This document shows, piece after piece, positions 19,525 to 45,163 of a stretch of 64,000 nucleotides of DNA. The notes under the pieces were generated by a model. It was given only the letters and a program-made list of their open reading frames with translations. It was not told where the DNA came from and made no database searches. The stretch is from Hyphomonas sp. Lineage in GTDB: Bacteria > Pseudomonadota > Alphaproteobacteria > Caulobacterales > Hyphomonadaceae. The stretch spans positions 710,827 through 774,826 of the forward strand of contig NZ_CP051230.1 of assembly GCF_017792385.1 (NCBI RefSeq), given 5' to 3'. The number at the start of each line of letters is the position of its first letter. The first letter of the stretch is position 1. The position numbers and the translations under genes were made by a program.

Positions 19525-19525
19525 G

Positions 19526-19569: not shown

Positions 19570-19827
19570 GAATCCCAATATTCACACAGCGCGCCCCACG
19601 GAACATGTTGGAAATCTTTCGGGAACATTCCGGAACACCCGATTGGGATGGAATGGGCACGCGTCAATTTTCCGTTCTGAATCAGGCCGCTGCCCTGCCC
19701 TGCCCGGCGCCCCCTCGCGGCCAAGAGACCAGATGTCATTTTTTCACGATTTCCACAGATGCTTTCAAAAGCGCACCTGTTCTGCTCGTTTCGGCGGCGC
19801 ATCGATTTGCGAATGCTTGGACAGACA

Positions 19828-19857
19828 AGAAAAAGCCCCGAAGCAATGCTTCGGGGC
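19828..19857 (-). terminator. Rho-independent terminator after ahpC-ahpD
   Basis: GCCCCGAAGC / GCTTCGGGGC stem followed by TTTTTCTT on the minus strand. Confidence 0.85.
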
Positions 19858-19889
19858 CCTTGCAGAGGAATTGCAGTGGACGCGCCGGA

Positions 19890-20432: not shown

Positions 20433-20654
20433 GAATCCTCATCCTTCCGGGTTCATTGAGTGAATGTGCGGGGATGCAAATGGTCCGGCAGGCCCTGAGG
20501 CTAGAGGGGGGGGAGTGCCAACGTCCGCGGAACTGGGTGGACGAAAGGCCTGCCGGACTGGTTTGCCGCGCTGATGGAAAGACGCCCTTTTGGGTGGGGG
20601 AGGGAGAAGGACATCTTCCCAGGAGTATCAGCGTGCGCAGGGTATATGCGCGAA

Positions 20655-21215: not shown

Positions 21216-21302
21216 AGTGAATCTCCTGGGTAGGGGGTTTGGTTGCTGCCGGGACGGTGGGCCCGGATGGCGTGCCTTTACGCAGTTGCGGCAAAAAGGA
21301 AA

Positions 21303-21339
21303 ATTGATAATTTCCATTCCCGTTATAGATGCAGTCTAT
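21303..21339. promoter_or_regulatory. OxyR-binding site between ahpC and oxyR
   Basis: ATTG-N7-CCAT-N7-ATAG-N7-CTAT is the OxyR consensus ATAG-N7-CTAT-N7-ATAG-N7-CTAT with 2 mismatches; it overlaps the oxyR start. Confidence 0.85.
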
Positions 21340-22237: not shown

Positions 22238-22269
22238 CCCCTTACCCGCCGGGCCGGTCCGTTTCCGCC

Positions 22270-22310
22270 TTGACGGGACGAATGCGCTTATACATAACGC
22301 GTTATATAAC
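22270..22310 (+). promoter_or_regulatory. Sigma70-like promoter with overlapping palindromic operator
   Basis: TTGACG (22270-22275)-N17-CATAAC; the perfect palindrome ATAACGCGTTAT (22294-22305) overlaps the -10 element directly upstream of the MarR-GNAT gene. Confidence 0.6.
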
Positions 22311-22315
22311 AAATT

Positions 22316-23302
22316 ATGGATATGCCCATGCCCCCGGACATTCTCGCCGATGTCGGCTATCTCGGCCTCGCCAGCCGCCTCAAACGCCTCGCCGACCGGC
22401 TGCAGGCCGAAGCCGTCAGCGTGTTCGATGCGCGCGCCTACCCCATCCAAACGACCCATTTTCCCCTGATCGCCGCGCTGGAGGCGCATGGCCCGCTCAG
22501 CGTGTCCGCCGCCGTCGAGGCCACCGGCGTCAGCCAGCCTGCCATCACCCGCATCCACAATGCGCTGCAGGAGATGGGGCTGACCGCCACCCGGCCGGTT
22601 GAGGGGGACAATCGCCGCAAGGAGATCTGCCTGACCCCTTCTGGCGAAGCCCTTATCGCCGAGATGCGCGCCAGTTTCTGGCCCGCCGTGCGCAAGGCCG
22701 CCGAGCAGCTCTGCCTCTATCCGGATCATGACCTTCTGGCCGAGATACAGCTTGTGGAGTCCCGTCTGGCAGACCAGCCGCTTTCGGCGCGGATCGAACA
22801 GGTGGCCAATCCCGCAGGGCTCGAGATTGTGGAGTTCACCGACGCCCTCGCCCCGCATTTCGACCGCATCTCCCGCGAATGGGTGGAAGAGATGTTCCGG
22901 CTGGAAGCCGAAGACATTGCGATGATCGAGAATCCACGCGCCAGGGTCATCGACAAGGGCGGGACGATCCTCTTCGTGCGCGATCCGGAGCTTGGCATCA
23001 TCGGCACCTGCGCCCTGATGCCGATGGCCGATGGCGGCGTGGAACTTACCAAGATGGGCGTGCTGAAATCGGCCCGCGGCCGCCGGGCCGGCGATTTCCT
23101 GATGCGCCAGATCCTGAAGCGTGCCCGCCAGATGCAGGTGCAGGACCTCTTCCTGCTGACCAATTCCAAATGCGCCGCCGCCATCCGCCTCTATGAGAAA
23201 TACGGGTTCCGGCACGATGATGACAGCATGCGCCGCTACGGCCACCGCTATGAACGCTGCGACGTGACGATGTCGTATGCGATGCCGGCCTCCCCGCAAT
23301 AA
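22316..23302 (+). CDS. MarR-family HTH / GNAT acetyltransferase fusion
   Basis: N-terminal LASRLKRLADRL...GVSQPAITR wHTH; C-terminal ELTKMGV...RGRRAG...AIRLYEKYGF GNAT. Confidence 0.9.
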   Translation: MDMPMPPDILADVGYLGLASRLKRLADRLQAEAVSVFDARAYPIQTTHFPLIAALEAHGPLSVSAAVEATGVSQPAITRIHNALQEMGLTATRPVEGDNRRKEICLTPSGEALIAEMRASFWPAVRKAAEQLCLYPDHDLLAEIQLVESRLADQPLSARIEQVANPAGLEIVEFTDALAPHFDRISREWVEEMFRLEAEDIAMIENPRARVIDKGGTILFVRDPELGIIGTCALMPMADGGVELTKMGVLKSARGRRAGDFLMRQILKRARQMQVQDLFLLTNSKCAAAIRLYEKYGFRHDDDSMRRYGHRYERCDVTMSYAMPASPQ

Positions 23303-23330
23303 AAAAACCCCGCCATCCGGCGGGGTTTTC
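23301..23330. terminator. Bidirectional terminator between MarR-GNAT and tacA
   Basis: AAAACCCCGCC-ATCC-GGCGGGGTTTT between convergent genes. Confidence 0.85.
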
Positions 23331-23368
23331 CTGCCGGTCTTTGCCGGCGTCTCCCTTTCGACCTTGGC

Positions 23369-24826
23369 CTAGCTCGCCTCGCGCTCGTGGCGCACGTCGA
23401 GATCGTATTCGCGGACCTTGCGGTACAGCGTCGAGCGGCCGATCCCCAGCCGGCGCGACACTTCACTCATATGGCCCTCGTAGAAATCAATCGCATACTG
23501 AAGGATATCGCGTTCGATATCGCTCAGCGTACGCAGCTCGCCGGCCTCGTCCTGGATGGCCACCGGGCCGCTGCCTGTCACCTCGGCCGTCTCGGCGGCC
23601 GTCGCCACCGCGGCCAGCGGCGAGGCCGGCAGGCTGGCAACATCCGGCATCTGACCGGAAATCTGCGGAAAATCCTGCGGGCGCAGCTGGTCGCCATCGC
23701 ACAGCACAACGGCGCGGAAGACGGCATTCTCCAGCTGGCGCACATTGCCCGGCCAGTCATAGGCATACAGCATCTTCATCGTGTCGTCGGCCACGCCGGC
23801 CACTTTCGCGCCTTCGCTGGCATTGAACCGGCTGACGAAATGCTCGACCAGGGCCGGAATGTCATCCCGGCGCTCGCGCAGGCTCGGCATGTCGATCGGA
23901 TACACGTTCAGGCGATAGAACAGGTCTTCCCGGAACGTGCCCTCGGTCACTTGTTGCGACAGGTCCCGATTGGTCGCGGAAATGATGCGCACATCCACCT
24001 TGGTCGGACGGCGGGAGCCGACAGCGTCCACCTCCCCTTCCTGCAGGGCCCGGAGCAGTTTGACCTGTGCGTCCAGCGGCAATTCGCCGACTTCGTCCAG
24101 GAACAGCGTGCCGCCATCGGCCTCGACAAACTTGCCGAGCGCCTTCGACACGGCACCGGTGAACGCGCCCTTCTCGTGACCGAACAGGATGGATTCGACC
24201 AGGTTCTCCGGGATCGCGCCGCAATTGACGGTCACGAACGGCTTTCCGGCCCGGCCGGAGGCGCCCTGGATGCAACGCGCGACCACTTCCTTGCCGACGC
24301 CGCTTTCGCCCAGGATCAGAACCGGAATGTCGGAACTCGCGGCCCGTTCGGCCAGACGCACCACCTGGCGCATCGGCGCGGCGCTGGCGATCATGTCGTC
24401 AAAGCTCATGCCGCCTTCCGCCTTGCGGGACAGGCGCTTCACCTCACCCGACAGGGTTTGCAGCTTCAGGGCATTCTGGATCGACACAACCACGCGTTCC
24501 GGATTGGCGGGCTTCACGATGAAATCCACCGCGCCGCGGCGCATGGACTGGACAATCGTGTCGATGCCGCTGGTTGCGGTCAGCATAATCACCGGCAGGT
24601 CTGCGCGTTTCGCGGCCAGCCGCTCCAGCGTGTCCATGCCGGACAGGCCGGGCATGGTCAGGTCAAGCAATACGACATCAATGCCGTCTTTCGGGTCGGA
24701 TGCCAGCGCCAGGCCAGCCTCGCCATCCGGCGCCGTCCGGCAGGCAAAGCCGGCCTTCTCGACCGCCGCCTGCAGCAGGCGGCGCTGCGTCGGATCATCA
24801 TCAATCACCAGAACCGTCTTGGCCAT
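23369..24826 (-). CDS. tacA: Sigma54-dependent response regulator, NtrC family (TacA-like)
   Basis: REC (VLVIDDD, LLDL), AAA+ ([29 protein letters not shown]) and Fis HTH ([11 protein letters not shown]). Orthology to Caulobacter TacA is inferred. Confidence 0.75.
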
Positions 24827-25435
24827 GTCTACCACTACCCTTCCATGCCCCGGGCCGCCCTGACGGGTCGCCCCCTTGAATGCCGCACCTGACACAAACC
24901 GGAACAGGTTCGTGCCGTATCGTTACGCCCCGTTCTGACACATCAGGGTGGAAGTCCCGTTGAAGCGAAGCGTGAAATTTGACGCAAATCCGATCCATTC
25001 CAGCGCCGGTTTTGCGCACCGATCCGGCAATTGCACACAAATGACAGCGGTCATTCCCGGCCCGGACATCACGGATCGCGACAGAATGTGACACGGCCCG
25101 CCCGATCGGCGCCGCGCTGGCCGGGACGTACTGTCCCGCCCCCAGGCGCGCGCGCTCCCTTCGCCCTCCACACCCGGATCTGTTGCATTTGCAACAGGTT
25201 TGGAGCCTGCCAGCCGGGCTTCCTGAGATCCGGGTCCGTTTCGGCAGTCTCCTGTGGCCCGCCCCGGACCGCCCCTCAACTGGCGGCGCACCCATCAATT
25301 CCCGGTGAGAATGCTCGCCATCCCCCCGTATGGGCATCGACAAGCCCCGTAAATATACGTAGTCACCGGGGCTTGGGTCGGGCCCTATGGTGCGATTCCG
25401 GCACAGACAGGCTGCGCGGTCAGGGGACGCAACGC

Positions 25436-25633
25436 ATGCAGGATAATCAGGGGCCGGGCAAACCGCCCGGAACGAAGCGAGTGGAGACTACCGGCGACAT
25501 GTTGCGTGACGCGCTTCGGCAATCCTTCGAAGATTCCCTGAAGGCGCCGCCATCGGCACGTCTTGAAAAACTGATGTCGGAATTGCGCGACAAGGAAAAG
25601 CGCAAGCGCACTGAAACCGGCAAGGCCGACTAG
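25436..25633 (+). CDS. Small NepR-like anti-sigma-domain protein (65 aa)
   Basis: The C-terminal part of track ORF 25031-25633 from ATG 25436 (GGGG RBS) reads MQDNQ...GDMLRDALRQSFEDSLKAPPSARLEKLMSELRDKE, which fits the NepR core LRxx(Y/F)D...P.P.R(F/L)xxLLxxL. Confidence 0.6.
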   Translation: MQDNQGPGKPPGTKRVETTGDMLRDALRQSFEDSLKAPPSARLEKLMSELRDKEKRKRTETGKAD

Positions 25634-25681
25634 ACCCCGCTCCGTCAGGCCCAGGCCGGACGACGGATCCGCACGACAGGT

Positions 25682-26041
25682 CTAGACGACGGACCGGTGG
25701 CCCACGAGATCGTCGAGCACATGGCTGGCCAGCGCGTGGCGGAATTCCACGCCGACCTGGTCTCCCGCGCGCCAGCGGATGGCGCAATCGATCTGGAAAT
25801 TCGGTTCGGCAGGCGAGGTCTGCAGCAACAGGTGAAACGTGTCTGGCAGGAACATCCAGTTGCCCACCGACAGCCGGGCGCCATCGGGCGAAATGTCCTT
25901 CACGCTCACGCTGCGGGCTTCGCTGTAATCCATCAGCACGATCCAGGCCATGCCCCTCACCTTGAGGCGGGGGGACCGGCGCAATTCCTGCGGCGCAAGG
26001 GCCGGGTCGGGACGGAAGGCTGAGAGATCGGTCATGCGCAA
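25682..26041 (-). CDS. Stand-alone PilZ domain protein
   Basis: RRSPR (RxxxR) and DISPDG (DxSxxG) c-di-GMP-binding motifs; start uncertain. Confidence 0.9.
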   Translation of the reverse strand: MRMTDLSAFRPDPALAPQELRRSPRLKVRGMAWIVLMDYSEARSVSVKDISPDGARLSVGNWMFLPDTFHLLLQTSPAEPNFQIDCAIRWRAGDQVGVEFRHALASHVLDDLVGHRSVV

Positions 26042-26110
26042 CCTATGCGCGACACGTCAAAATCGTTCCGTCGCGCCAGGTATTTTTTTGCAAGCCCCCC
26101 CCCTGACGGG

Positions 26111-26548
26111 TCAGGCGAGGTCCAGCGCCCGCAACACGGCACCCTGATCGAAATAGGGCCGTTCGCAGATAATCTTGTCACTGCCGGGCGCAAACTCGAA
26201 CGTGGCCGCCATCCGCACCCGAAAGCGCCGCCCGGTCGGCTCGACAGTCGTGTTGCCCACGCGCAGCGGCCCGGTATGCGTGCCCGTCAGCCAGAACTCG
26301 ACCAGAACCGTATCCGCCGCCTCATCGGCCGCGATCGAGATGATCTCATTGTCCTGGTCCGGAAAGGGCGTGCGCGACAGCTCGAAATACCGCCGCACCG
26401 CCGCCGCCCCGTCAAACACCTGCCCGCCGCCATGCATCTCATAGCGCGGATGCTCAAACGTCGCCAAAACCGCATCCCAATCATGCGTGACTTCCAGCGC
26501 CATATGATGACGGACATTGGCGATACGGGATTGGGATAGGGGGGTCAT
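26111..26548 (-). CDS. SnoaL-like ester cyclase family protein
   Basis: HMALEVTHDWDAVLATF...VEFWLTGTHTG...PTGRRFRV...ERPYFD pattern; start trimmed to MTPL. Confidence 0.85.
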   Translation of the reverse strand: MTPLSQSRIANVRHHMALEVTHDWDAVLATFEHPRYEMHGGGQVFDGAAAVRRYFELSRTPFPDQDNEIISIAADEAADTVLVEFWLTGTHTGPLRVGNTTVEPTGRRFRVRMAATFEFAPGSDKIICERPYFDQGAVLRALDLA

Positions 26549-26549
26549 G

Positions 26550-27299
26550 TCAGGCGGCCTCGAACACTTCGTCTCTATGGTACTCCAAATACTCTGGAAG
26601 CGGATGAAACTTCTCAGGTGCGGTGGCGATCCGTCCTTCAAACAGACCACGAATATCGTTTGGCACCACAAGTTTCGGTGAGCATCTCACCGTCAGATCG
26701 TTGTTGAGGGTGATGAGTCCTTTGTCGAAAGCTCGATCATGCAGTGAGTTGAGACATATTCCATTTCTGGGGTCCAGTCGAAGCTTCTCATTCTTACTCC
26801 AGGGAATGATGTGACTCGCAATCAGAACTTCCGGCAACTCAATCCCTGTCAATGCACAACGGGAGTTGTAGGCCGACAAAACCATGGCGCGAAATGCCGA
26901 CTGGTTCTTGCGGACCCTCACTGTTCGTAAAGTATCCTCACCTTCGCGAAACTCCAAAGGCTCAGAGTCCTCATCCCTCGTGGGCCATTCACCCTCAGAC
27001 ATGAGGATAGATTGTGCCGATTCTAGAAACCTTTCGGGGTCAGCAAAAAATTCGTCCCATATCTCCCGGTCAGCCTTCGAGGCCCCTTGCAGCCCCGTAC
27101 GGTTTAAAGTCTCATCGAGTGAAGCAAAGTTGGCGAGTTTCATCGCCACTGAACTCGGAGTACGACCGAGCCGTTCGGCGAGTTTGATCACGTCGGGGTT
27201 GCCACGATGCATTCTGCCAAATGGCGTGCGTACATACAGCTCCAAGGCGAGCACTTGGTCGCGCCGCTCCCACGGTTTGCGCTCAGCCAAAGTTACCAC
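26550..27299 (-). CDS. HNH endonuclease, putative restriction/defence type
   Basis: CALTG...ASHIIPW...RNGICLNSLHDRAFDKG...YLEYHR HNH_2-type domain plus an N-terminal helical domain (LAERLGRTPSSVAMKLANF). Lower GC than the neighbours; start uncertain (GTG 27299). Confidence 0.88.
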   Translation of the reverse strand: MVTLAERKPWERRDQVLALELYVRTPFGRMHRGNPDVIKLAERLGRTPSSVAMKLANFASLDETLNRTGLQGASKADREIWDEFFADPERFLESAQSILMSEGEWPTRDEDSEPLEFREGEDTLRTVRVRKNQSAFRAMVLSAYNSRCALTGIELPEVLIASHIIPWSKNEKLRLDPRNGICLNSLHDRAFDKGLITLNNDLTVRCSPKLVVPNDIRGLFEGRIATAPEKFHPLPEYLEYHRDEVFEAA

Positions 27300-27595
27300 C
27301 CAACGCTTGGTGCTCCCTGCTGGTCGCATTCATCCAGATCATATTTAAGCCCGATCCGCTCCACCCATTCGGTCGGTAACTCTCCAGATTGCCAATCACG
27401 CATCATCTCGGCGCGGGCAAAGCCTCCCATGACATGGTCAATTCCGAAACGCCGCACGAAAACGCGGTCGGTCTCTTTCAGCCAGTTCGCAAATTCCATG
27501 ATGGCACACTCATCCTCTGCGGAAACGGAACTCAACCTGAATGAGGTTGCACCGTCAACACCCACCACCGCACAAAACAAGAACACCCTAGACAC
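27293..27595 (-). CDS. Hypothetical protein, translationally coupled to the HNH gene
   Basis: 100-aa ORF whose stop overlaps the putative HNH start; the real start may be the internal MEFANW. No family recognised. Confidence 0.5.
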
Positions 27596-27624
27596 CTGCG
27601 CTCCCTCGCCCCATATCTCGCGGC

Positions 27625-29823
27625 ATGGCTCCTCCCCCTCCCCCGAAAGGCGTTTCCGAAGCGCCCAGCGTGTTTTCGCTTGATGGGTTCGCGCGCGATG
27701 CTGCGGGCGCCCTGCCCTCTGACAACTGGACGCCCCACCGGCCGGACCGCGACTGGGTCAAGCTGGAAGGCGGCAAGCGGTTCAAGGTGCATTCCGAATA
27801 CGAGCCCGCCGGCGACCAGCGCACCGCCATCCCGGAACTGGTCGAGGGCATCCAGGCCGGCGAGCGCGACCAGGTCCTGCTCGGCGCCACCGGCACGGGC
27901 AAGACCTTCACCATGGCCAAGATCATCGAGGCGACCCAGCGCCCGGCCCTGATCCTGGCGCCCAACAAGACACTCGCCGCGCAACTCTATGGCGAGTTCA
28001 AATCCTTCTTCCCGGAAAACTCGGTCGAGTATTTCGTCTCCTATTACGACTATTACCAGCCCGAGGCCTACGTCCCCCGCTCGGATCTCTATATCGAGAA
28101 GGAATCCTCCATCAACGAGGCCATCGACCGGATGCGCCACTCGGCCACCCGCGCCATCCTGGAGCGCGACGACGTCATCATCGTCGCCTCGGTCTCCTGC
28201 ATCTACGGCATCGGCTCGGTCGAGACCTACACCTCGATGACCTTCAAGCTGGAAGAGGGCCAGCGCATCGACCCGCGCGCCGTGGCCGAACAGCTGGTCG
28301 CCAATCAGTATACGCGCAATGACATGAATTTCGTGCGCGGCACCTTCCGCGTGAAGGGCGATGTCGTCGACATCTACCCCGCCCACTTCGAGGACCGCGC
28401 CTGGAAGCTTTCCTTCTTCGGCGACGAGCTGGAAAGCATCACCGAATTCGACCCGCTCACCGGCCGCACCATGCAGAAGCTGCCGGCGATCAAGATCTAC
28501 GCCAACAGCCATTATGTCACGCCGCGCCCGACGCTCAACCAGGCCATCGAGAAGATCAAGGCGGAGCTGAAGCTGACCATCGACCATTTCGAGAAACACG
28601 GCAAATTGCTGGAGGCCCAGCGCATCCAGCAGCGCACACAATATGATCTCGAAATGCTCGCCGCCACGGGCTCGTGCAATGGCATCGAGAACTATTCCCG
28701 CTACCTCACCGGCCGCAAGCCCGGCGATCCGCCGCCCACCATGTTCGAATATTTGCCGGACAATGCCCTCGTCTTCACCGATGAGAGCCACCAGACCGTG
28801 CCGCAGATCGGCGCCATGTATCGCGGCGACTTCTCGCGCAAGTCGACGCTGGCCGAATATGGCTTCCGCCTGCCCTCCTGCATGGACAACCGCCCCCTCA
28901 AATTCGAGGAATGGGACGCGATGCGCCCGCAGACCGTGCACGTCTCGGCCACCCCCGGCCCGTGGGAGCTCGACCGCACCGGCGGCGTGTTCACCGAACA
29001 GGTCATCCGCCCGACCGGCCTGCTCGACCCGCCGGTCGAGGTCCGCCCCGTCTCGAAGGATGGCGCCAACCAGGTCGATGATGTCATGGCAGAGGTCAAG
29101 GCCGTCGCCGCCAAGGGCTATCGATCGCTCATCACGACCCTGACGAAAAAGATGGCGGAAGACCTGACCGACTTCCTCAATGAGCATGGCGTGAAAGTGC
29201 GCTACATGCATTCCGACATCGACACGATCGAGCGGATCGAGATCATCCGCGATTTGCGCCTCGGCGTGTTCGATGTCCTGGTCGGCATCAACCTCCTGCG
29301 CGAGGGGCTCGACATTCCGGAATGCGGCTTTGTCGGCATTCTCGATGCGGACAAGGAAGGCTTCCTCCGGTCAGAGACGAGCCTGGTGCAGACCATCGGC
29401 CGCGCCGCGCGCAATGCCGAGGCCCGCGTCGTGCTCTATGCCGACAAGGTCACCGGCTCCATGCAACGCGCCATGGACGAGACAGACCGCCGCCGCGCCA
29501 AACAGATCGCCTATAATGAGGAACACGGCATCACGCCGACCACGATCAAGCGCGCCGTCGCCGACATCCTCGGCGACCTCGGCGAAAAATCCGACACCCC
29601 CCGCGCCCGCGGCCGCGGCAAGGACAAGGCAAAGGGCAAGACGCGCGGCGTCGCCGAAACAAAAGCCTTGCCACTTGCGGGCGAAAGCGGCCACAATCTC
29701 AAAGCCGTCCTCGCGGACCTCGAAAAACAAATGCGCGAAGCCGCCGCGAACCTGGAATTCGAGGAGGCTGCAAGGCTGAGGGACGAGGTAAAGCGGCTGA
29801 GGGAAGAAGAGCTGGGGCTTTAG
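27625..29823 (+). CDS. uvrB: Excinuclease ABC subunit B
   Basis: [53 protein letters not shown] and C-terminal UVR domain. Confidence 0.99.
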
Positions 29824-30746
29824 GCAGCTTCTAATTGGAGCAAGTGCTCCCCGATTTGCTCGACTGAGGTCATACCACGAATACGAATCTCCTCTTGATC
29901 AGCTTGCTCCTCAAGCGTTTCAAGCGCATCCGCAACATTCCTCATTTGTTTGGCGGAAAATTGAGGGTCATTTTTAGGTGGGATCTGAATAAGCATCTCG
30001 TGATATCTATCCTGCCCCCGATCCCAGTCTGCGTCCCTATTTACTTTTAGTTCCCATAATCTGGATTTTATTCGTCCTGATGAAGCGGAAACACCGTTTG
30101 CTTGCAGCGTTCCAAAATTTGCAACTAGTTTTGAACCTGCAAAATCAATATTCACTTCAGCCCCACGGCGAGCGGAGCGTCGCTTTCTTTCCAACCGAAC
30201 ATCTTCGCTAAAGAATGGCACTAAGCCGACCCGTTTTTCTTTGATATAGTCCTTGATCAAAATCGGCAGTCTATCACCTCCGCCGGTTCTTGGTCTCGCC
30301 TCTTCGACGAGCGTCTCTACTATATCTAGTTCAAATTCTTCTGAATATTCATCAGCATAAAGAGATGACAGGCTGACCATCCACGAGCAGGCAATTTGTT
30401 TCAGACTTTCACCTTCCCCGTTCCGGAGTTCACCAACCTTCACACCAGAAAACGGGACGCTGGGCTCCAGCAGCGCCTCAATTGAGCGCATGGCCAAATC
30501 AGACCGTAAACTCTCTGCAGTCCACTCAATCACCGATATCACAATCTTGGATTGATCTGCATAGAGGCATTTTAGTCGATCCAAGCGGTTAGCAATCTCC
30601 AGATGGAAGCCGTCGCTGGAAACCACAGCCACACCGAACACTAGGCGCTCATACGAGCCCTCAATGGGCTGAATCAAAAGGGGAGCCCACTTCGCATCCA
30701 CCTTAGATCGAAAACTTGGAAACATATCTGAGATCAGAGATGACAT
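29820..30746 (-). CDS. Hypothetical partner of the HipA-like kinase (DUF3037-like N-terminus)
   Basis: [22 protein letters not shown] resembles the DUF3037 N-terminal pattern; low GC; 2 nt downstream of the kinase. Confidence 0.6.
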
Positions 30747-30748
30747 GG

Positions 30749-31564
30749 CTATACCAGATAATTCAATGCTTTAGCCGATTTCGCAGGTGTCTCGGACTTT
30801 CGCTTTTCAAGGAAGTTGTTCAACGCCTTTCGGTCGCCTTCTGTCAAGTATGGCTCAACGCCACTATCTGCGAGCATCGCGGCAATATCTAGAGCGTTAA
30901 TGTCTCGGCAAAGTGCAGAAGAAACTCCGGCATGGTTCGCCTTCTCGTCTTCACTCATGTGAACAGTCAACCATTCAGACAGCCTGTTGATATAGTCTGC
31001 AGAAGGATCAAGATTTTCTGCCGACCACTTCGGACCCGTAAAAGAGTGACCATGATCGATTAGCCAGATAGCATCCTTTCCACCAAAAATCAGGTTTCCT
31101 GCATGCCGGTCGATATTTGCGACCCACGTGTCAAAAGCATATAACTTACCCAAATCTGCCCAAGCGATTAGTTCTTTTAGCAGACCAAGAATTTGGCCGT
31201 GGTCTACGGCCTGCAGTCTAAATCTCAGGCTTGGCGTGCTAACATCCGCACTGGCAAGAACAAGAGGAAGACCATCAACGGTTTTGGGACCTTTTTTTGC
31301 AGGCAGGCTATTATCTCTCACGACTGCCAGATAAGTGATGGGGATGGGCAGCCCTAGAGCAGTGGCGCATGCTGAAGCTAGCAATTCATTACAAAGCTCC
31401 TTCGGCTCAAGGTCCTTCAAGATTGCAGAACAAGTTGTCAAACCCGCCGTAAGTATCTGTCCGCGGTAAGTATCGTTCACATTGCCTTCTTTGAAGGGCT
31501 GAGCGCCAGCCAGAACCGAAGCCAACCGTATGGATTGGTGTTTTGGTATTTCTGTGGTCAACAC
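30749..31564 (-). CDS. HipA-family Ser/Thr kinase
   Basis: Lys (AILK), alphaC Glu (CNELL), catalytic DRHAGN and Mg-binding IDHG motifs intact; low GC; GTG start. Confidence 0.85.
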   Translation of the reverse strand: MLTTEIPKHQSIRLASVLAGAQPFKEGNVNDTYRGQILTAGLTTCSAILKDLEPKELCNELLASACATALGLPIPITYLAVVRDNSLPAKKGPKTVDGLPLVLASADVSTPSLRFRLQAVDHGQILGLLKELIAWADLGKLYAFDTWVANIDRHAGNLIFGGKDAIWLIDHGHSFTGPKWSAENLDPSADYINRLSEWLTVHMSEDEKANHAGVSSALCRDINALDIAAMLADSGVEPYLTEGDRKALNNFLEKRKSETPAKSAKALNYLV

Positions 31565-31712
31565 TCCCCCCCTATTTGAACCTACATCTATCTTTCATGG
31601 CTCGATCTGTCTATCATAGATTGCTATGCGGACGGGGTTCATACACCCTTAATTTCTGAAAGATATCTGCCCACATATGGGACCGCCCAGCACCGCACCA
31701 CTTCGCCGTGCC

Positions 31713-31995
31713 GTAGCAGGCGGGTTAGCGAAGCGTAACCCGCCTGCCGCCCCTTCGTCCTTCGACCCCGGCTTTCACCGGGGCAAGCCCCGCTCAGGAT
31801 GAGTCCGCTTCTTGCGGCTGGCTCCGCGCTCCAACGGCGGGAGACCCCGGCATGCGCCGGGGATGCGGACTTTGCGGGGATAGAGGTTTGCACTCTCCCC
31901 CCGCAGGCCCCTGCGGCGGCAGGGGCCCATCTCCAGCTCCCTCCTCAAGCGCTTCAGGCGATGGCGGGAGATGGATACCTGCCTTCGCAGGTATC
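31713..31995. repeat. Cluster of REP-like palindromic elements (left block)
   Basis: GTAG-GCAGGCGGGTTA/TAACCCGCCTGC hairpin (31713-31747); GTCCTTCGA...CTCAGGATGAG type; CCCCGGCATGCGCCGGGG; GATACCTGC-CTTC-GCAGGTATC. Confidence 0.8.
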
Positions 31996-32009
31996 TCCGG
32001 GCTTGAATT

Positions 32010-32600
32010 ATCGCCCTCACCATCCCCCCACCACACTCGCCGCACCGGCCCGAGATGGGCCCCCAGATGGCCTGTGGCCATCGGGGGTGACGACCTTTTG
32101 GGAGGAGAGATCGGCCTTTCCCAATCCGACGCACAGCCCCTCATGCGATGATGGTGACCTGCCCTTCCGGGAGCCGGATCAGGTACCGTTCTGGTCGGAG
32201 AGGCAGGGACAGGATGGGCCTTGCGGGAGACAGACGGTCCCGCATGGCCCTAGGCAGGTCAGGCCAGGGTGAGCCTGCGAAAGCAGGTAGGGAACCCGCC
32301 TCGTCCGGCAGCCCGGGAGACATCCCCGGATGGACTTCCCGTGTGAAAAGCACGGAAGACCCGTTCGTGCGGCGCCGGTAACGAAGACCCGGGACCATGG
32401 GCCCCCATGAGGGTGTCCCGCCGAAGCCCCTGTCCGGCGCGGCGGGCGGTAACGCTCCATTCCGTAGCCTTGTTCAGTTCCAGGCGGAGCGCCACGGCGC
32501 CCGCCGCGCCATGGCTCTGTTGGGGCCGGTTGTTGGATCCCCGGATGGCGCGCGCCAGTCCGGCCAAACGCGTTGGAGGAAACCTCGCAGACCCCCACCT
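32010..32600. other. ~590-nt highly structured non-coding element (ncRNA or foldback element)
   Basis: Many perfect stems, e.g. TGACCTGCC/GGCAGGTCA, CCTGC-GAAA-GCAGG, and a 13-bp GGCGCGGCGGGCG/CGCCCGCCGCGCC; no credible CDS. Confidence 0.6.
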
Positions 32601-33015
32601 GTCCTCCCCCTTGCAGGGGGAGGAACGCAGACAGCAGCCGCCTTGCTTGAGGGGCCGTTCTCCCCCTTGCAAAGGGGGAGTTAGAGGGGGATCGCGATGG
32701 CATGGCCATCGCCCTTCGCCAGCTCAGGCGGAGGGGGGTGAGGCAGGACAGGCCCGGCGCAGCGATACCCGCCAACCCCGTCCCGCCTTCAACCCTGTCA
32801 TCCCGGAAAATCCGTCAGGATTTATCCGGGACCCAGACACTGGGTGCGGGATGACAGGAACGGGACGATACAATCCGTCCTTCTGCTCCCCCGCCTGCGG
32901 AGGAGGTGGCAGGCGGCGCAGCCGGCTGACGGAGGGGGGATTCCGGACCCGCGGCACCAGCCCCCTCCGCCTCGCGGGGCTCGGCACCTCCCCCGCATGC
33001 GGGGGAGGATTTCCC
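32590..33015. repeat. Cluster of REP-like palindromic elements (right block)
   Basis: CCTCCCCCTTGCAGGGGGAGG, CTCCCCCTTGCAAAGGGGGAG, TGTCATCCCGG...GGGATGACA, CTCCCCCGCCTGCGGAGGAG, CCTCCCCCGCATGCGGGGGAGG. Confidence 0.8.
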
Positions 33016-33016
33016 C

Positions 33017-34375
33017 CTATGCCATCAGGGCGCCGGCGATCAGGTAGAGCGCCACGGCCAGCCCGCCGGTGACCAGCGCATAGGGCATCTGGGTGCGGAC
33101 ATGGTCGATATGGTCACAGCCCGCCGCCAGCGAGGCGATGATCGTCGTGTCGGAGATCGGCGAGCAATGGTCGCCGAAGACACCGCCGCCCAGCACCGCT
33201 GCCAGCACCAGCGAGGGCGGCAGGCCGAGCGCGGCGGCGAGCGGCATGGCGATGGGGATCATGATGCCATAGGTGCCCCAGCTGGTGCCGGTCATGAAGG
33301 CGGTCACGCCCGCCACGACAAACAGCACGGCCGGCACGATGACCGGCAAGACGAACTGGGCCGCAACGCCCGACAGGAAGGCCCCCGTGCCGAGCACGCG
33401 CAGACTGTCGCCGAGCGCGATGGAGAGGAAGAGAATGGTCACCACAGGCACCATTTCGGCAATCCCGGCAAAGCCGCGTGCCTGCAGGCCGCCCTTCGGA
33501 AAGGCCTTGCCCAGCGCCAGCAGCCCGGCCGCCACGGCCATGGCCAGGCACACCGCCCAGAGGATCGACTGGCTGCCGCTGCCGGCCAATATGTTGCCGC
33601 CGCCGGTCCAAGCCATGAAGCCGAGCGCGCCGGCAATCATCACGGCCAGCGGCAGCCACATATATATCGCGCGCGTCGGCGCGACGGGCGCGTCTGCTTC
33701 GGCCTGCACGCCGGCGCCCTGCCCCGCCGTTTTCATCGGGCCGAAGACCCGGCCGGTGAACACGGTGGCATATACGCCGGCCAGCGTCAGGAGGGCATAG
33801 AAATTCCACGGGATCGTGCCCGCCACCACGCCGATCGGACTGTCAAAGCCATAGGGCTCGACCAGGCCGAGCGCATAGGCGCCCCAGCCATTCAGCAGGA
33901 TCAGCGCGCTGATCGGGGCCGAGGTGGAATCGATGATATAGGCGAGCCGCTCGCGCGACAGGCCATGCGCATCGAACAGGCGCTGGCCCAGCACGCCGCT
34001 GCTCAGCAGGCTGACATTTGTCTCGACGAAGATGGCTGTGCCCGCCAGCGCCGGGGCCAGGGCAGCGCGGCGCGGCGTCGATGCCAGGCCCCGCCGCATC
34101 AGGCCGCGCACCAGCGCCTCGACGCCGCCGGAATCGCGCATCCAGGCGATCAGCGCACCGATCAGCAGGCAGAACAACAGGACGCGTGTATTGCCGGGGC
34201 TCTCGAACACGCCGACCGCACGGTCAATCGCGCCCAGCGCGCCGAGGCCCGGATGAAAGCCGGCAATCAGTGTTTCCGAGGCCAGCAATGCCAGGCCCAG
34301 CGCGGCATAGACATTGCGCGTCGCCAGCGCGACCAGGATCGCCAGCACGGGCGGCAGTATCGTCAGAATGTCCAG
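33017..34375 (-). CDS. Na+/H+ antiporter NhaC family protein
   Basis: RERLAYIIDSTSAP, FMTGTSWGTYGI, GGVFGDHCSPISDTTIIAS...HIDHVRTQMPYA. The start is extended to CTG 34375 behind a perfect AAGGAGG; the track start is GTG 34348. Confidence 0.9.
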   Translation of the reverse strand: MDILTILPPVLAILVALATRNVYAALGLALLASETLIAGFHPGLGALGAIDRAVGVFESPGNTRVLLFCLLIGALIAWMRDSGGVEALVRGLMRRGLASTPRRAALAPALAGTAIFVETNVSLLSSGVLGQRLFDAHGLSRERLAYIIDSTSAPISALILLNGWGAYALGLVEPYGFDSPIGVVAGTIPWNFYALLTLAGVYATVFTGRVFGPMKTAGQGAGVQAEADAPVAPTRAIYMWLPLAVMIAGALGFMAWTGGGNILAGSGSQSILWAVCLAMAVAAGLLALGKAFPKGGLQARGFAGIAEMVPVVTILFLSIALGDSLRVLGTGAFLSGVAAQFVLPVIVPAVLFVVAGVTAFMTGTSWGTYGIMIPIAMPLAAALGLPPSLVLAAVLGGGVFGDHCSPISDTTIIASLAAGCDHIDHVRTQMPYALVTGGLAVALYLIAGALMA

Positions 34376-34469
34376 GGCCCGGCCTCCTTGCGTGCACGCG
34401 GCTCACCTAAGCGCATTCGCCGCCCGATGCCCAGCGCCCTGTATGACGGGCGGGGGCGCGGCCGGGATT

Positions 34470-34498
34470 TTGACCCAGGATTCGGGCCCGGTCACAAA
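34470..34498 (+). promoter_or_regulatory. Candidate sigma70 promoter of the large ncRNA
   Basis: TTGACC (34470-34475)-N17-CACAAA with a GANTC (34479-34483) in the spacer; the -10 element is weak. Confidence 0.35.
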
Positions 34499-34519
34499 AC
34501 TGTGAAATTCTCGTCGGAA

Positions 34520-35075
34520 GGGACTCGACTCAAGGGCAGTTTTGGGGAATCATTTCGGTTAGCCAACGAAATCCGGGCGGGCGCCAACCCGCTTCAGGAG
34601 CGGCGGCAAGTACATCGCCCTCGACGGAAGGGCCGGGCCAGAAGCAAGGCTGCGAGAGCAGCGGCGCAAAGGGCCAGGCGGGACCGCGAGACAAGGCAGG
34701 CGATGTCTTCGATGAGGGGAGCTAGACCCCGAGCGAAGGGCTGTAGGACGTGACCGGAGCGCGATCCGAAACACGTCACCAAAGGAAAATCCGAAAGGAT
34801 TTCCGGCGGTTAGGTCAGGCTGACGCGAACTCGCCCGTGCGAATGAGGGAAAGTCTGATCCGGGAGACGGCCTTGGGCGCAAGCCCGCTCGCAAGATGTG
34901 TGGCGGCGACCAGACCGGATCCTGACAAAGGGCAAAAGAAAAGGCCCGCTTTCGCGAGCCCGATCCTTGCCCGGTGTCAATCGAGGACCGACAACGAGTG
35001 CATGCACAATGTCTCGATAGTCTGATTCGAAGCACCAGAGAAGGTGTGATCGTCCGCGATCACACCTTCTTTTTT
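34520..35075 (+). ncRNA. Large ornate non-coding RNA, ROOL-like candidate
   Basis: About 540 nt with no credible CDS. Nested helices: GAATCA/TGATTC, ATCCGG/CCGGAT, ACATCGCC/GGCGATGT, GACGTG/CACGTC, TCAGGCT/AGTCTGA, GGGCAA/TTGCCC. GNRA tetraloops on the + strand and its own terminator. The 5' end is approximate. Confidence 0.75.
35039..35075 (+). terminator. Rho-independent terminator closing the ncRNA
   Basis: AGAAGGTGTGATCG-TCCG-CGATCACACCTTCT 14-bp perfect stem plus a T-run; no + strand CDS upstream needs it. Confidence 0.92.
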
Positions 35076-35210
35076 GCGCGCGGCGGTTTTCCGGAATTCG
35101 CCTCTTGCGCGAGTCCGGCCGCAGACGCCGCCGCAACCCCTGCCCCGTCTCGCGCGTAGTCTCTGCGAACCCGATCCCTGACACGCCCCATCCCGAAAGG
35201 CCCCGCCCCC

Positions 35211-36188
35211 ATGCTCGCCCTGCTCGAACCCGTCTTCGTGTTGATCGGCGTGTGGGGCCTGTTCGCCGCCCTCGCGCCAAAGCTGCGCACGGAAATCTGG
35301 TGGATGCGCATCTGGGTCTATGGCCGGCTGCAGACCTGCCTCATCCTGTTCGCGGCCCTCGGCCTGTATCTCGCGCTCTATCCCGTCGGCGACATCGGCA
35401 CGGCCACCCTGCTGATGGCCTATGCGGTCGGCCTGTCGATCTGCGCGCTGGACATCTGGCCCTATTTGCCCGGCCGGAAGCGCGAATTGCGCCGTGCCCG
35501 GCCCGGCAGTCCCGGCACCCCGCTGTCCGTGCTGCTGCTGAACGTGCTGCAGGAGAATGAGGACCATGCTGCCGTGCTCGCCCGCATCCGTGACAGCGAT
35601 GCCGACATTGTCTTCCTGTCGGAAACCAATGCCCGCTGGCGCGCCGCCCTTGCCCCGCTGGAGGCCGATTATCTCCACACCTTCCTGCTCGACAAGGAAG
35701 ACCATAACGGCCTCCTCTTCTATTCGCGCCATCCCGTCACACGCACCCAGGAACGTTATCTCTGCCAGGATCATGTGCCGTCCCTGACCATGGACATCGA
35801 TCTGGCCGGCCGCGAGGTGCGCCTCTACTGCATCCATCCGCGCCCCCCCCGCCCGCGCGATGACACGCAACATCTCGATGACGAATTGATGATCGTGGCC
35901 GATGAATTGCGCGAACAGCACCGCCCTGCCCTCGTGATCGGCGATTTCAACGAGGTCGGCTGGTCGTGGATGGTGAAGGAGTTCAAGCAGCATGGTGGCC
36001 TGTGCGATCCGAAACGGGGCCGTGGCCTGTACAATTCCTATGGCGCGAAGTCGCCCTTCCTGGCCTGGCCGCTGGACCATGCCTTTGCCACGCCGCACTT
36101 CGATCTGACGCGCATCTGCCGCCTGCGTCCGTGCGGATCGGACCATTATCCCATCCTGTACGGCTTCCACCTCCGCCCCGGCCCTTGA
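35211..36188 (+). CDS. Endonuclease/exonuclease/phosphatase family protein with N-terminal TMs (YafD-like)
   Basis: LLNVLQEN, FLSETN, IGDFN, PLDH and GSDHYPI motifs. Confidence 0.9.
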   Translation: MLALLEPVFVLIGVWGLFAALAPKLRTEIWWMRIWVYGRLQTCLILFAALGLYLALYPVGDIGTATLLMAYAVGLSICALDIWPYLPGRKRELRRARPGSPGTPLSVLLLNVLQENEDHAAVLARIRDSDADIVFLSETNARWRAALAPLEADYLHTFLLDKEDHNGLLFYSRHPVTRTQERYLCQDHVPSLTMDIDLAGREVRLYCIHPRPPRPRDDTQHLDDELMIVADELREQHRPALVIGDFNEVGWSWMVKEFKQHGGLCDPKRGRGLYNSYGAKSPFLAWPLDHAFATPHFDLTRICRLRPCGSDHYPILYGFHLRPGP

Positions 36189-36221
36189 TCCCTGTCAGAT
36201 TGGCATGCCCGGAAATCGCGT

Positions 36222-36237
36222 GTAACCTCTGCTTAAC
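36222..36237. promoter_or_regulatory. CtrA-binding site upstream of the caspase-domain lipoprotein
   Basis: GTAA-CCTCTGC-TTAAC, one mismatch to TTAA-N7-TTAAC, 20 nt before the ATG. Confidence 0.55.
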
Positions 36238-36256
36238 CAATACCGAGGGGACGGTG

Positions 36257-38362
36257 ATGCGGCGAATAAACTTGGTTTCCAATCTGTGCGCCCTGGCGCT
36301 CGCCGCCCTGCTCGCGGCCTGCAGTGCGCAGCAGGACGCGGGTCAGGCCTATGATCCGGAGCCAGAGCCGGACCCGCAATTCGAAGTGCCTCCTCCTCCG
36401 CCGCCGCCTCCGCCTCCGCCCATGATCGACTCCCCAACGGAGCCGGAGCCGCCCCGCGCATCGGCGCCCGGCAGCAGCCCCAACCCTGGCCGCGACAGGC
36501 CGGGCGTGTCTCCGGAACTGCCTGGGGACATCGCGGATGAAGACGAGAACGACGAGCCCGGCAGCCCGAGCCTTGGCTTCGGCGAAGCGTCCGATCTGGA
36601 AGAGTTGCGGGAACTCCATGCCGATAATCCGGCATTTCTCGAGTGGCTCGACAGCTTTGCCGACGGTGCAGAGGACCTTGCCGCCCTCGAACCTGCGGCC
36701 GGCGCATCCGACACAGAATTCTGCCAGGCTGAAATCTCGGCCCCCCGCACCCTGCTGATCACCTGCGACGGCGCCGGATCCGGCACCTACTCCCAGGCCA
36801 CGCATCGCATCGAAGGGGACCTGACCGAAACCCTCGACCTGCTCGCACGCGATCTTGCCGGCGAAGGTCTGGAGGTAGGCCTGTTCGACCGCCAGCTCTG
36901 TTTCTGGAGCGAGACCATCTCGATCGACGGGTCAGACCTCGTCATGAATTGTCCCGATTGGGACTTCCGCTACTCGGAGCTGGCCGCCGAAGCCGCTGCT
37001 GCATTCGACAGCGGCCGGATCGCACACCATGCGCCGGAACAGATGGTGCTCGGGCAGCCCTATTTTCTCGAAATCGCGATTCAGCCAATCCAGAGCAACA
37101 CGACAGAAGCTGAAGTTGACGACTCCCTGCGCGCCGTGATGGGAACGGGCTTGGCTGCTGACAGTTCGGAGCAGGCCTTTTCGCTGGAATTCGACACGGT
37201 CCGCGCAAGTCAGGTCATGATGGCCAATGCCACGGCCGACGCGTTTGACCTGACCCTGATGACCCCCGAAACCCAGCCCGTCGTGCCGGGAGAGCCGACC
37301 TTGTGGCAATGGAAAGTCGTTCCGCGCTCGGTCGGCACACCAAATCTGACGTTCACCGTGTCCCAGCGCGTCTCGGTCGAGGGTCAGAACCTTGCAAAAG
37401 TGGTCAAGACCATTCCCGTTTCGGTGAATGTGGTGTCACTGGACGTGCTGCTCGCCGATCCCGGCCCGGCAGCAGATGAAGCCGCGGATGCGCGCCGGTC
37501 AGCTGGATCGGACGAAGACACGGTGATGCCGCTGACCGGGTCCCTCACCGCGCCGCCCTCCGGCGTAAGCGATACCACGGAAATGAGTGTTGCCAACATT
37601 GCGAACGCCGCGTCCGGCCTGCTGCCGGATACGGAAATTGCCGGATGCACCTGGGTCAGTGGTCCCAATCCGGACCGGCAGGCCATGGTGCTCAGCAATC
37701 TGGCTTACGCCCCGCCGGTCAGCCGGCTTTCCGTGACGCATGAAGACGGCGACCGGATCACCGACGCACTGTCTGCGGTCGGGTTTTCGGTGCTGAAATG
37801 TCAGGACCTTGGCCAGCGCCAGACGGTTCGCGCGCTCAGCCTGCTTGGCCGCATGTCGAAAGCCCGCAAGGATGCCGGTGCCTATCCGGTCACCTTCTTC
37901 TATTATTCCGGCCATGGCGTGAATGTCGGCGGCACCAATTTCATCCTGCCCACGGACATTCCCGGCGCGTCTCCCGAAGAAATCCGGGATTTCGGTGTCA
38001 GTTTCGAACAGATATTCAATCGCGTGTCGACAACTGTCGCGCCCACCTCGTTTATCGTGTTCGATGCCTGCCGGACTGTCATGGATGATGAAAGCCGGGG
38101 CCTGATGCGGGCCTATAGCCCTGTAGGCTGGGCGTCCGGCGTGTTCCAGGCCTTCGCGACCGAGCCCGGCAAGACCGCTGCCGATGATGGCGTCTATTCC
38201 GAGGAGTTGTCCGTCCTGATCCGCACGCTCGATGACCCGGCCAATGTCGTGTTCAAACGTGTCCAGGATGCGGTCGCAGCGCGCACGGGACAAAAGCAGA
38301 GACCGGTCTACACCGACGGCACGACGGGCGGTGATTTCTACTTCATCCAGGACGCGGACTAG
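36257..38362 (+). CDS. Lipoprotein with Pro-rich linker and C-terminal caspase-like (peptidase C14) domain
   Basis: Lipobox LLAA|C, poly-Pro tract, FFYYSGHG and IVFDACR dyad; start trimmed from 35966 to ATG 36257. Confidence 0.85.
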   Translation: MRRINLVSNLCALALAALLAACSAQQDAGQAYDPEPEPDPQFEVPPPPPPPPPPPMIDSPTEPEPPRASAPGSSPNPGRDRPGVSPELPGDIADEDENDEPGSPSLGFGEASDLEELRELHADNPAFLEWLDSFADGAEDLAALEPAAGASDTEFCQAEISAPRTLLITCDGAGSGTYSQATHRIEGDLTETLDLLARDLAGEGLEVGLFDRQLCFWSETISIDGSDLVMNCPDWDFRYSELAAEAAAAFDSGRIAHHAPEQMVLGQPYFLEIAIQPIQSNTTEAEVDDSLRAVMGTGLAADSSEQAFSLEFDTVRASQVMMANATADAFDLTLMTPETQPVVPGEPTLWQWKVVPRSVGTPNLTFTVSQRVSVEGQNLAKVVKTIPVSVNVVSLDVLLADPGPAADEAADARRSAGSDEDTVMPLTGSLTAPPSGVSDTTEMSVANIANAASGLLPDTEIAGCTWVSGPNPDRQAMVLSNLAYAPPVSRLSVTHEDGDRITDALSAVGFSVLKCQDLGQRQTVRALSLLGRMSKARKDAGAYPVTFFYYSGHGVNVGGTNFILPTDIPGASPEEIRDFGVSFEQIFNRVSTTVAPTSFIVFDACRTVMDDESRGLMRAYSPVGWASGVFQAFATEPGKTAADDGVYSEELSVLIRTLDDPANVVFKRVQDAVAARTGQKQRPVYTDGTTGGDFYFIQDAD

Positions 38363-43642: not shown

Positions 43643-45163
<1,521 letters not shown>

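Follow-up and report, generated by a model that had tools for sequence, protein, structure and literature searches.

A candidate family of large structured RNA genes repeated within REP-type mosaics of Hyphomonas

An initial annotation of a 64,000-nt stretch of Hyphomonas DNA (the window) had flagged a large structured non-coding element at 32010-32600, within a GC-rich intergenic region of 1.45 kb (31565-33016). We found that the true unit, here called unit B, occupies 32123-32575. In our reading, unit B represents an undescribed family of independently transcribed structured non-coding RNA genes of about 415 nt. The family would be older than the mosaic of repetitive extragenic palindromic (REP) sequences that surrounds it in the window, would be kept in at least eight concertedly evolving copies in some Hyphomonas, and would most likely act in trans with a common partner. 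We give this reading a probability of roughly 0.55. That unit B is a real and conserved RNA-type structure, maintained on one strand, is much more certain than the reading as a whole.

Unit B is a discrete repeat. It starts at AATCCG (32123) and stops about 12 nt past a terminal hairpin. Both edges were sharp in blastn searches, alignments and flank inspection, and the DNA on either side was unrelated among copies. A 20-mer from the best-covered part (32255-32274) matched 90 loci in metagenome contigs, and 95 related loci were recovered altogether. At least eight copies were found on one 2.1-Mb contig and four on a 372-kb contig. In four metagenomes, the contig depth over 31800-33020 was 5-15 times that of the flanking genes or nhaC, and the contigs covering the B region were short and broken, with alternative joints. 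No second copy was found in the window by nhmmer, blastn or a covariance model. The first fifth of the flagged interval (32010-32122, about 113 bases) turned out to belong to a separate REP-type insertion.

The fold was analyzed in an alignment of 43 copies that were less than 97% identical to one another, with a mean identity of 78%. RNAalifold predicted 111 pairs in 18 helices, and 24 of the 111 pairs had compensatory changes. Standard pairs were observed in 99.2% of the 4765 pair cells. Comparatively, only 36-47% of the cells had standard pairs in controls slid by one to three columns. Changes on both sides affected 24 pairs (223 cells), whereas the slid controls had no more than 8 such pairs and 46 such cells, and none of 500 shuffles reached the observed covariation values. 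These figures bear out the original suggestion of a large structured non-coding element at this place. The minimum free energy of 32010-32600 as a single sequence was only marginally better than that of shuffled sequences (z = -2.2 for the + strand and -2.1 for the - strand). As single-sequence folding alone is not convincing, the reality of the structured element rests on the comparative evidence.

The same alignment identified the strand. Among the pair cells there were 452 G-U and only 9 A-C combinations, and pairing dropped from 99.2% on the + strand to 89.9% on the mirror strand. Therefore, the fold belongs to the + strand. The unpaired junctions of unit B were invariant. Unit B thus has what is looked for in a non-coding RNA gene, a secondary structure that is conserved and, on one strand, maintained by compensatory changes.

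All the parts of unit B described here are read on the + strand. Homology sets in sharply at AATCCG, upstream of which the DNA of the copies is unrelated, and the first segment (32123-32158) is a promoter-like leader. It carries two nearly invariant boxes, ATCCG (32124-32128) and a -10-like hexamer, GATGAT (32146-32151), which is CATACT in most copies and TATACT in a distant homologue, L012. The spacer between the boxes varies in sequence and is constant in length. Domain 1 (32159-32206) is a 5′ hairpin of three stacked helices, CTG/CAG, CTTCCG/CGGAGA and GCCGGATC/GTTCTGGT. The second of them has four covarying pairs, and the third is invariant and includes two G-U pairs.

The central multi-branch domain (32207-32435) is closed by GGACAGG/CCTGTCC. 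Its hairpins lie at 32216-32250, 32273-32288 (GAAA loop), 32315-32326 (GACA loop), 32335-32358 and 32399-32419, and its long-range helices, which are invariant in close copies, join 32253-32270 with 32387-32422. Invariance holds for the closing helix (32207-32213/32429-32435) as well as for 32257-32270/32387-32396. The junction strands CTAGGCAGGTCAGGCCAGGGTGAGC and GGTAACGAAGACCCGGGACC are invariant, and helices 5, 9, 11, 12 and 15 have three to four compensatory pairs each. Several stems proposed in the initial annotation were recovered here with covariation, namely GGGCC.TGCGGGA/TCCCGCA.GGCCC (32216-32250), CCTGC-GAAA-GCAGG (32273-32288), the hairpin core CCGGG/CCCGG (32315-32326) and CTTCC.CGTG/CACG.GAAG (32335-32358). 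Three to four copies have another middle module instead of 32293-32373.

The 3′ domain (32436-32510) is a long hairpin composed of the 13-bp stem GGCGCGGCGGGCG/CGCCCGCCGCGCC, internal loops and the helix CGCTCC/GGAGCG, and its apical loop contains CATTCCGTAGCC. Eighteen of its 21 pairs are invariant in the 43 copies. It is followed by a short variable hairpin, GGCTC-TGTTG-GGGCC (32513-32527), whose pairing is kept in the forms GGCTC/GAGCC, GGTTCC/GGGGCC and GGCTTCG/CGGAGCC. The last element (32541-32563) is a terminal hairpin that contains a bulged base, CCGGATGG-loop-CCAG(T)CCGG. Its tail, CTTTGGGTGCTG in most copies and CCAAACGCGTTG in the window copy, runs to 32575 and forms the 3′ edge of the unit. 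This hairpin is possibly a weak terminator; it did not pass the T-run requirement of the terminator scan. Scanning unit B for a sigma-70 consensus and for canonical terminators revealed neither. As the sigma-70 scan gave nothing, the promoter function of the leader is only inferred.

Other stems in the initial annotation did not survive the comparison among copies. The stems TCACCATC/GATGGTGA and TTGGGA/TCCCAA lie within or bridge the 32001-32122 insertion, which most copies lack. TCCGG-GAG-CCGGA is not conserved, and two covariation-supported helices take its place. Likewise, GGCCGG/CCGGCC is not conserved and is replaced by the terminal hairpin CCGGATGG/CCAGTCCGG (32541-32563). For TGACCTGCC/GGCAGGTCA, the part CTGCC/GGCAG is conserved and the remainder is not.

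A distant relative extended this comparison. L012 is a metagenome-assembled genome (MAG) whose NhaC protein is 72% identical to that of the window. It was matched by a covariance model covering the 3′ domain of unit B only (45.8 bits, E about 1e-6), and an entire B-like unit of roughly 50-55% identity was found there. The unit comes immediately behind the terminator of the gene upstream and is followed by a convergent gene, with neither REP sequences nor module A (described below) around it. In the model-fitted alignment, nine pairs were compensated in the long hairpin and three in the bulged terminal hairpin. The 13-bp stem and the CGCTCC/GGAGCG helix (32436-32510), already recognized in the initial annotation and invariant in close copies, are thus maintained through nine compensated pairs in L012. 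In a plain sequence alignment, four pairs were compensated in the central long-range helices. The boxes ATCCG and TATACT of L012 are separated by exactly the same distance as in all the Hyphomonas copies, with a different spacer sequence. We take this conserved spacing for a promoter-like signal, from which the RNA would start near 32159. In addition, two RNA contigs, of 868 nt (run X32, depth 34) and 973 nt (run X34, depth 21), matched only 32435-32528, at about 82% identity, and ran into unrelated sequence on both sides. They probably come from further distant relatives of the family; a wider use of the 3′ domain would also account for them.

We also surveyed RNA libraries. Words from unit B were present in at least 18 RNA-seq runs, marine metatranscriptomes included. 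In metatranscriptome X29, B contigs had a depth of 8-65; comparatively, the depth was 0-1.7 for module A, the REP-like mosaic that often adjoins unit B. The presence in RNA of unit B and not of the equally repeated module A argues against DNA carry-over. In three transcriptomes of one organism, the RNA contigs spanned only the interior of unit B, at depths like those of mRNAs of the same species.

No described family accounted for this structure. A search of the whole window with Rfam 15 (4227 covariance models) gave no matches at the gathering thresholds. In E-value mode, 31000-36500 and 32100-32600 returned only noise (at most 17 bits where the thresholds are at least 36). The HEARO, IS605-orfB and group II models did not match unit B even at E ≤10, and no known ribozyme model fitted it (drz-agam-1 scored 16.7 bits against a threshold of 37). 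Membership in a known RNA family was therefore rejected by the Rfam searches, and a full-text literature search found no description of unit B. A plasmid or phage origin was rejected after blastn found no match in phage or plasmid collections. Exact-word scans of viral contigs gave a single 19-nt match, GGCGGGCGGTAACGCTCCA from the invariant hairpin of unit B (L170:2341-2359, an IMG/VR contig). This word falls within an HNH motif (…KAGGNAPNN…), in an IscB-like gene that belongs to an AT-rich phage, without further similarity. As about one such match is expected, we judged it to be due to chance. The possibilities that might have undone the initial proposal were accordingly not borne out: homologues show covariation, unit B is present in RNA libraries, and no match was found in Rfam or in the phage and plasmid collections (a dedicated collection of insertion sequence ends was not searched). 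The proposal of an undescribed large structured non-coding RNA agrees with the covariation, the strand-specific G-U pairs, the presence in RNA libraries, the lack of an Rfam family and the fold-keeping homologue.

Some known systems resemble unit B in part. Like HEARO (the IscB omega-RNA, RF02033) and the TnpB omega-RNAs (IS605-orfB motifs), it is large, rich in hairpins and multi-copy, its boundaries are sharp like those of an element, and neither inverted repeats nor target duplications are present. Unlike them, it matches none of their models and has no iscB or tnpB beside any of about 95 copies; no variable guide-like segment was identified at either of its ends, and its copies are old and fixed in position. 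With the enterobacterial REP sequences and bacterial interspersed mosaic elements (BIMEs) and the rhizobial intergenic mosaic elements (RIMEs) it shares an extragenic modular mosaic, genome-specific versions and the gain and loss of modules from strain to strain, and the GTAG-type REPs adjacent to unit B are a further likeness to the REP/BIME setting. However, REP units are palindromes of 20-40 nt and RIMEs measure about 100 nt, whereas unit B is a non-palindromic multi-domain fold of 415-450 nt with one-strand G-U pairs, invariant junctions and, in L012, a REP-free occurrence.

The "ornate" RNAs OLE, GOLLD, ROOL and raiA are comparable in being non-coding, longer than 400 nt, multi-branched and supported by covariation, with highly conserved unpaired nucleotides and GNRA-type loops. 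Unit B has no similarity to their Rfam models. They mostly occur as single copies, in many cases in association with prophages or tRNAs, whereas unit B has at least eight concertedly evolving copies and a modest RNA level. Group II introns lacking an open reading frame (ORF), including class C introns that insert after hairpins, are also several hundred nucleotides long, multi-domain and hairpin-adjacent, and are sometimes multi-copy and intergenic. Unit B, however, has neither a 5′ GUGYG, nor a 34-nt domain V with a bulge, nor a 3′ domain VI. Its sole AGC-containing hairpin has 7 bp and lies in the middle of the molecule, and the Intron_gpII and group-II-D1D4 models did not match.

The copies appear to be old. 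Unit B occurs at the same site beside orthologous genes across species, for example genes for proteins of 144, 237 and 396 aa. These flanking orthologues have protein identities of 53-80% and identities of 46-72% at third codon positions, and the neighboring B copies are 73-85% identical. The retention of sites beside such diverged orthologues indicates that the copies are old and constrained. Within genomes, the copies are 85-98% identical (mean 91%). Comparatively, the identity is 78% between genomes and 79% between orthologously placed copies. The higher identity within genomes is a signature of concerted evolution by gene conversion among paralogues. Only one pair of same-genome copies reached 98%, and most were 85-95% identical, so there was no recent burst. 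Three contigs (L100, L102 and L166) represent one locus with flanks of about 100% identity, and they have many differences concentrated in unit B and part of module A, mostly at covarying stems. These differences represent either real gene conversion or assembler switching between copies. As assemblers can switch copies inside invariant blocks, this hypervariation was not used as evidence.

A protein-coding gene or pseudogene was also considered and rejected. The overlapping ORFs, already regarded as artefacts in the initial annotation, would encode Arg/Pro/Gly-rich products, the indels are not multiples of three, and the variation is compensatory rather than codon-periodic. None of 42 non-redundant copies overlapped an ORF with coding-type G+C content at third codon positions, and the gene callers used on metagenomes place spurious ORFs on the B stretches.

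The gene context gave no recurrent partner. Over about 95 loci, neighbor-ORF clustering, Pfam scans and gene calls on six contigs revealed none, and no gene for a transposase, IscB, TnpB or reverse transcriptase adjoins any of them. Among the 20 cases in which the orientation of unit B and its neighboring genes could be resolved, seven were convergent, six and three were tandem, and four were divergent; the gene downstream was co-directional in 10 of the 20. The downstream genes are functionally unrelated, coding for an HI0933-like flavoprotein, a pyridoxal phosphate (PLP) decarboxylase, a fasciclin and proteins without known function. A constant site upstream of co-directional, functionally related genes, which is typical of riboswitches and leaders, was thus not observed. 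Small ORFs just downstream of unit B look spurious, and a GIY-YIG neighbor (L175) is a single case. As for the features of miniature inverted-repeat transposable elements (MITEs), the ends AATCCGTCTGAG... and ...TTTGGGTGCTG are not complementary, and inspection of the flanks of about 40 copies found no target-site duplications.

The initial annotation placed the element inside a REP mosaic, which is correct for this genome. Upstream of unit B, module A (31810-32000, +) is a mosaic of about 190 nt with four REP-like hairpins. It is not part of the RNA; its extent was drawn from blastn coverage by 50-60 loci and from an upstream alignment. Module A sits just upstream of unit B in about two thirds of the copies and is as multi-copy as unit B in DNA metagenomes. 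In the window copy, the two are split by a REP-type insertion of 122 nt (32001-32122) with the hairpin GGGCCCCCAGATGGCC...GGCCATCGGGGG. Most loci are without it, contigs from four metagenomes join 32000 to 32123, and its core (32052-32094) is found alone elsewhere, e.g. in L038. Downstream, a cluster of REP hairpins of 298 nt (32582-32879) is likewise not part of unit B. It is missing from the same locus in sister strains: a joint of 32581 to 32880 was found in run X2, and L090 and L109 run from unit B straight into 32879-33015. Unit B itself is extragenic and multi-copy, as REP and BIME sequences are. It is not, however, a short palindrome of 20-40 nt, often with a 5′ GTAG and clustered, but measures about 450 nt with 18 helices in three domains. 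That short-palindrome description does fit module A, 32001-32122 and 32582-32879.

Further repeat modules were noted around unit B. REP units made of CGTAG and CAGGCGGGTTAGCGAAGCGTAACCCGCCTG (a 5′ GTAG followed by a hairpin) occur in the window at 31718-31755 and upstream of unit B in L116, L121, L124 and L139. RAYT (TnpA-REP) transposases bind REPs of this 5′ GTAG-plus-hairpin form. A small hairpin module (…GAGGAACAGAAATCGTGCCAGTGGCACGATTTCCCGAG…) was found inside module A in L080, L103 and L146, and inside unit B in L097, L162, L166 and L141, where it stands in place of the equivalent of 32293-32373. In this respect it is similar to a tiny insertion element, or to an RNA domain that can be exchanged.

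We propose the following mechanism. Transcription of unit B would start near 32159, downstream of ATCCG and the -10-like hexamer, and would end at or just past the terminal hairpin (32541-32563). The RNA would fold into the 5′ hairpin, the central multi-branch domain with its GNRA-type loops and invariant junctions, and the long conserved 3′ hairpin, and it would work in trans, either as RNA or as an RNA-protein particle. Because all the copies in a genome stay alike, we suggest that they serve one common cellular partner and that copy number sets the dose. In this Hyphomonas lineage, the gene would have multiplied to at least eight copies within REP-type mosaics and been kept alike within a genome by gene conversion.

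Several observations weigh against this proposal. As the RNA runs are undirected contigs, we infer the strand, start and end of the transcript. The RNA depth of unit B is modest, at mRNA level, and unit B was not seen in four runs where the neighboring abundant RNA (described below) reaches 186 to 140,000. The promoter and the terminator are putative, and the -35-like box ATCCG resembles no sigma-70 consensus. The covariation events come from few genome lineages and are of limited independence, and the pair counts of L012 come from one sequence fitted to the model. Metagenome assemblies may join different copies inside a repeat, so some copies are possibly chimeras. A mobilized element would likewise be multi-copy, sharp-ended and associated with REPs. 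In about half of the copies, a co-directional gene follows directly, in some cases with 5-30 nt between the end of unit B and the ribosome-binding site, and a cis role is therefore possible at some loci.

Unit B might alternatively be a non-autonomous mobile element, an explanation that we find doubtful and nevertheless take seriously. It might resemble short interspersed nuclear elements (SINEs) or MITEs, or be the scaffold RNA of an IS200/605-type (IscB/TnpB omega-RNA-like) or REP/RAYT-mobilized element. The fold, as RNA or single-stranded DNA, would then be needed for mobilization by an enzyme encoded elsewhere, and the structure would reflect selection on source copies. The multi-copy state, the sharp ends, the unrelated flanks and the absence of unit B from the uvrB-nhaC gap of all other sampled Hyphomonas are consistent with mobility, as are the constant company of REP-type hairpins, some of which carry GTAG, a motif typical of RAYT substrates, and the swapping and insertion of modules among copies and near-identical strains. 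Copies of the same genome are also more alike than orthologously placed ones. The ends resemble those of IS200/605 elements, with hairpins set back by about 36 nt at the 5′ end and by about 12 nt at the 3′ end, and without inverted repeats or duplications. However, no transposase, IscB, TnpB, reverse transcriptase or other recurrent protein was found beside about 95 loci, and the HEARO, IS605-orfB and group II models of Rfam found nothing at E ≤10. A recent burst is not apparent (most same-genome copies are 85-95% identical, with one pair at 98%), sites persist across species whose third codon positions are near saturation, the covariation extends over the whole unit and not just its ends, and the L012 homologue is a lone unit without REPs. 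The suggestion in the initial annotation that unit B is the core of a mobile element is thus weakened, though not discarded, by the lack of inverted repeats, duplications and adjacent enzyme genes, by the orthologous sites and by the REP-free L012. A more ambitious version of the trans-acting RNA, which we consider unlikely, would place unit B in a new class of large functional RNA, its many copies co-evolving with one partner. It might be a catalytic or self-assembling "ornate" RNA like ROOL or GOLLD, or serve as RNA subunit in a system that is also behind the rearrangements of the REP mosaics. Such a class would leave room for a functional link between unit B and the abundant RNA at 34574-35075.

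A very large cis-acting 5′ leader of the riboswitch or attenuator type, with the terminal hairpin as the expression platform for the next gene, is quite improbable as a general explanation. Some copies do end 5-60 nt before the ribosome-binding site of co-directional genes (for the proteins of 144, 237 and 396 aa), this position is kept across species, and CUUUG follows the terminal hairpin. Only about half of the copies, however, have a co-directional gene downstream, and these genes share no function. The window copy faces the 3′ end of the convergent nhaC, other copies lie between convergent genes, and a convergent gene also follows the L012 homologue. There is, finally, only a slim chance that unit B is an unusually long REP/BIME-type repeat that acts on the DNA level or on mRNA 3′ ends, through termination, stabilization or protein binding, without an RNA function of its own. 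Its strictly extragenic position within REP mosaics and its genome-specific consensus versions, as described for REP families, would suit such a repeat. Its architecture, however, is multi-domain and non-palindromic, and its unpaired junctions are invariant. The 452 G-U against 9 A-C combinations indicate that the fold is kept on one strand only, the RNA libraries contain unit B and not the flanking REP modules, and L012 has a homologue free of REPs.

The surroundings of unit B in the window vary among relatives. The origin of the DNA from Hyphomonas (Hyphomonadaceae) agrees with its NhaC-type antiporter, which is 93% identical to those of Hyphomonas MAGs. The antiporter gene nhaC lies at 33017-34348 on the - strand and uvrB at 27625-29823 on the + strand, and a further non-coding stretch lies on the other side of nhaC, after its 34348 end. 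The genes uvrB and nhaC adjoin throughout Hyphomonas, and the gap of 1.5-5.4 kb between them differs and is unrelated between species. Conserved synteny of unit B downstream of nhaC was therefore rejected, the relatives' variable gap being unrelated sequence, and none of the other sampled Hyphomonas has unit B in this gap. In the window, a two-gene island of low GC content (29820-31564, -; about 48% against about 68%) separates uvrB from the repeat mosaic. Its genes encode a protein of 308 aa without a Pfam match and a HipA_2-like kinase of 271 aa (PF20613). Neither has a homologue in the equivalent uvrB-nhaC gap of any related Hyphomonas. The island looks like a horizontally acquired toxin-antitoxin or defense-type module.

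The non-coding stretch beyond nhaC contains another RNA, at about 34574-35075 (+), which is separate from unit B. It is single-copy and structured, and 14 of its 50 predicted pairs covary. Its RNA contigs span 34574/34580 to 35001-35036, sequencing adapter abuts 34580, and the RNA ends before a strong + strand terminator (35036-35075). In three transcriptomes its contigs had a depth of 14,000-28,000; comparatively, mRNAs of the same species had depths of 3-6. It reached a depth of up to 140,000 in one metatranscriptome and was present in at least 20 RNA runs. It matches no Rfam family and is not a transfer-messenger RNA (tmRNA); no tRNA or tmRNA was found near it. The abundant RNA adjoins nhaC in all the Hyphomonas examined, on either side of the gene. 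In genomes of the L003 type, it holds the very position between uvrB and nhaC that unit B holds in the window. On a 2.1-Mb metagenome contig (L141:6711-7740), a B copy precedes a homologue of the abundant RNA by about 50 nt; both are on one strand, and nhaC does not intervene. The two RNAs have no sequence homology by nhmmer, blastn or covariance model.

Directly downstream of the abundant RNA, here and in L141, is a gene of the Exo_endo_phos family (35211-36188, +). The next gene (35966-38362, +) encodes a protein of 798 aa with a C-terminal caspase-like Peptidase_C14 domain. A Peptidase_C14 gene also adjoins a B copy in L171. Further along the window, an imperfect long tandem array of 6- to 12-nt units (GGCTCTGGC...) was found at 44271-44993, in what looks like coding sequence, and its product would be a low-complexity repeat.

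Few bacterial RNAs combine a length above 400 nt with a complex conserved fold, and those that have been studied are ribozymes, scaffolds or giant RNA assemblies. Unit B combines features in an unusual way: it is a multi-gene family, its copies occupy fixed sites and yet are homogenized within genomes, and it is surrounded by REP mosaics in some genomes, whereas the unit of a distant relative is solitary. For the annotation of Hyphomonas genomes, the stretches of unit B should be corrected, as they do not encode hypothetical proteins. Unit B is thus a new candidate for a functional large RNA in abundant marine surface-colonizing bacteria. It also offers a natural system for studying how structured RNA genes multiply, evolve in concert and gather REP-type repeats.

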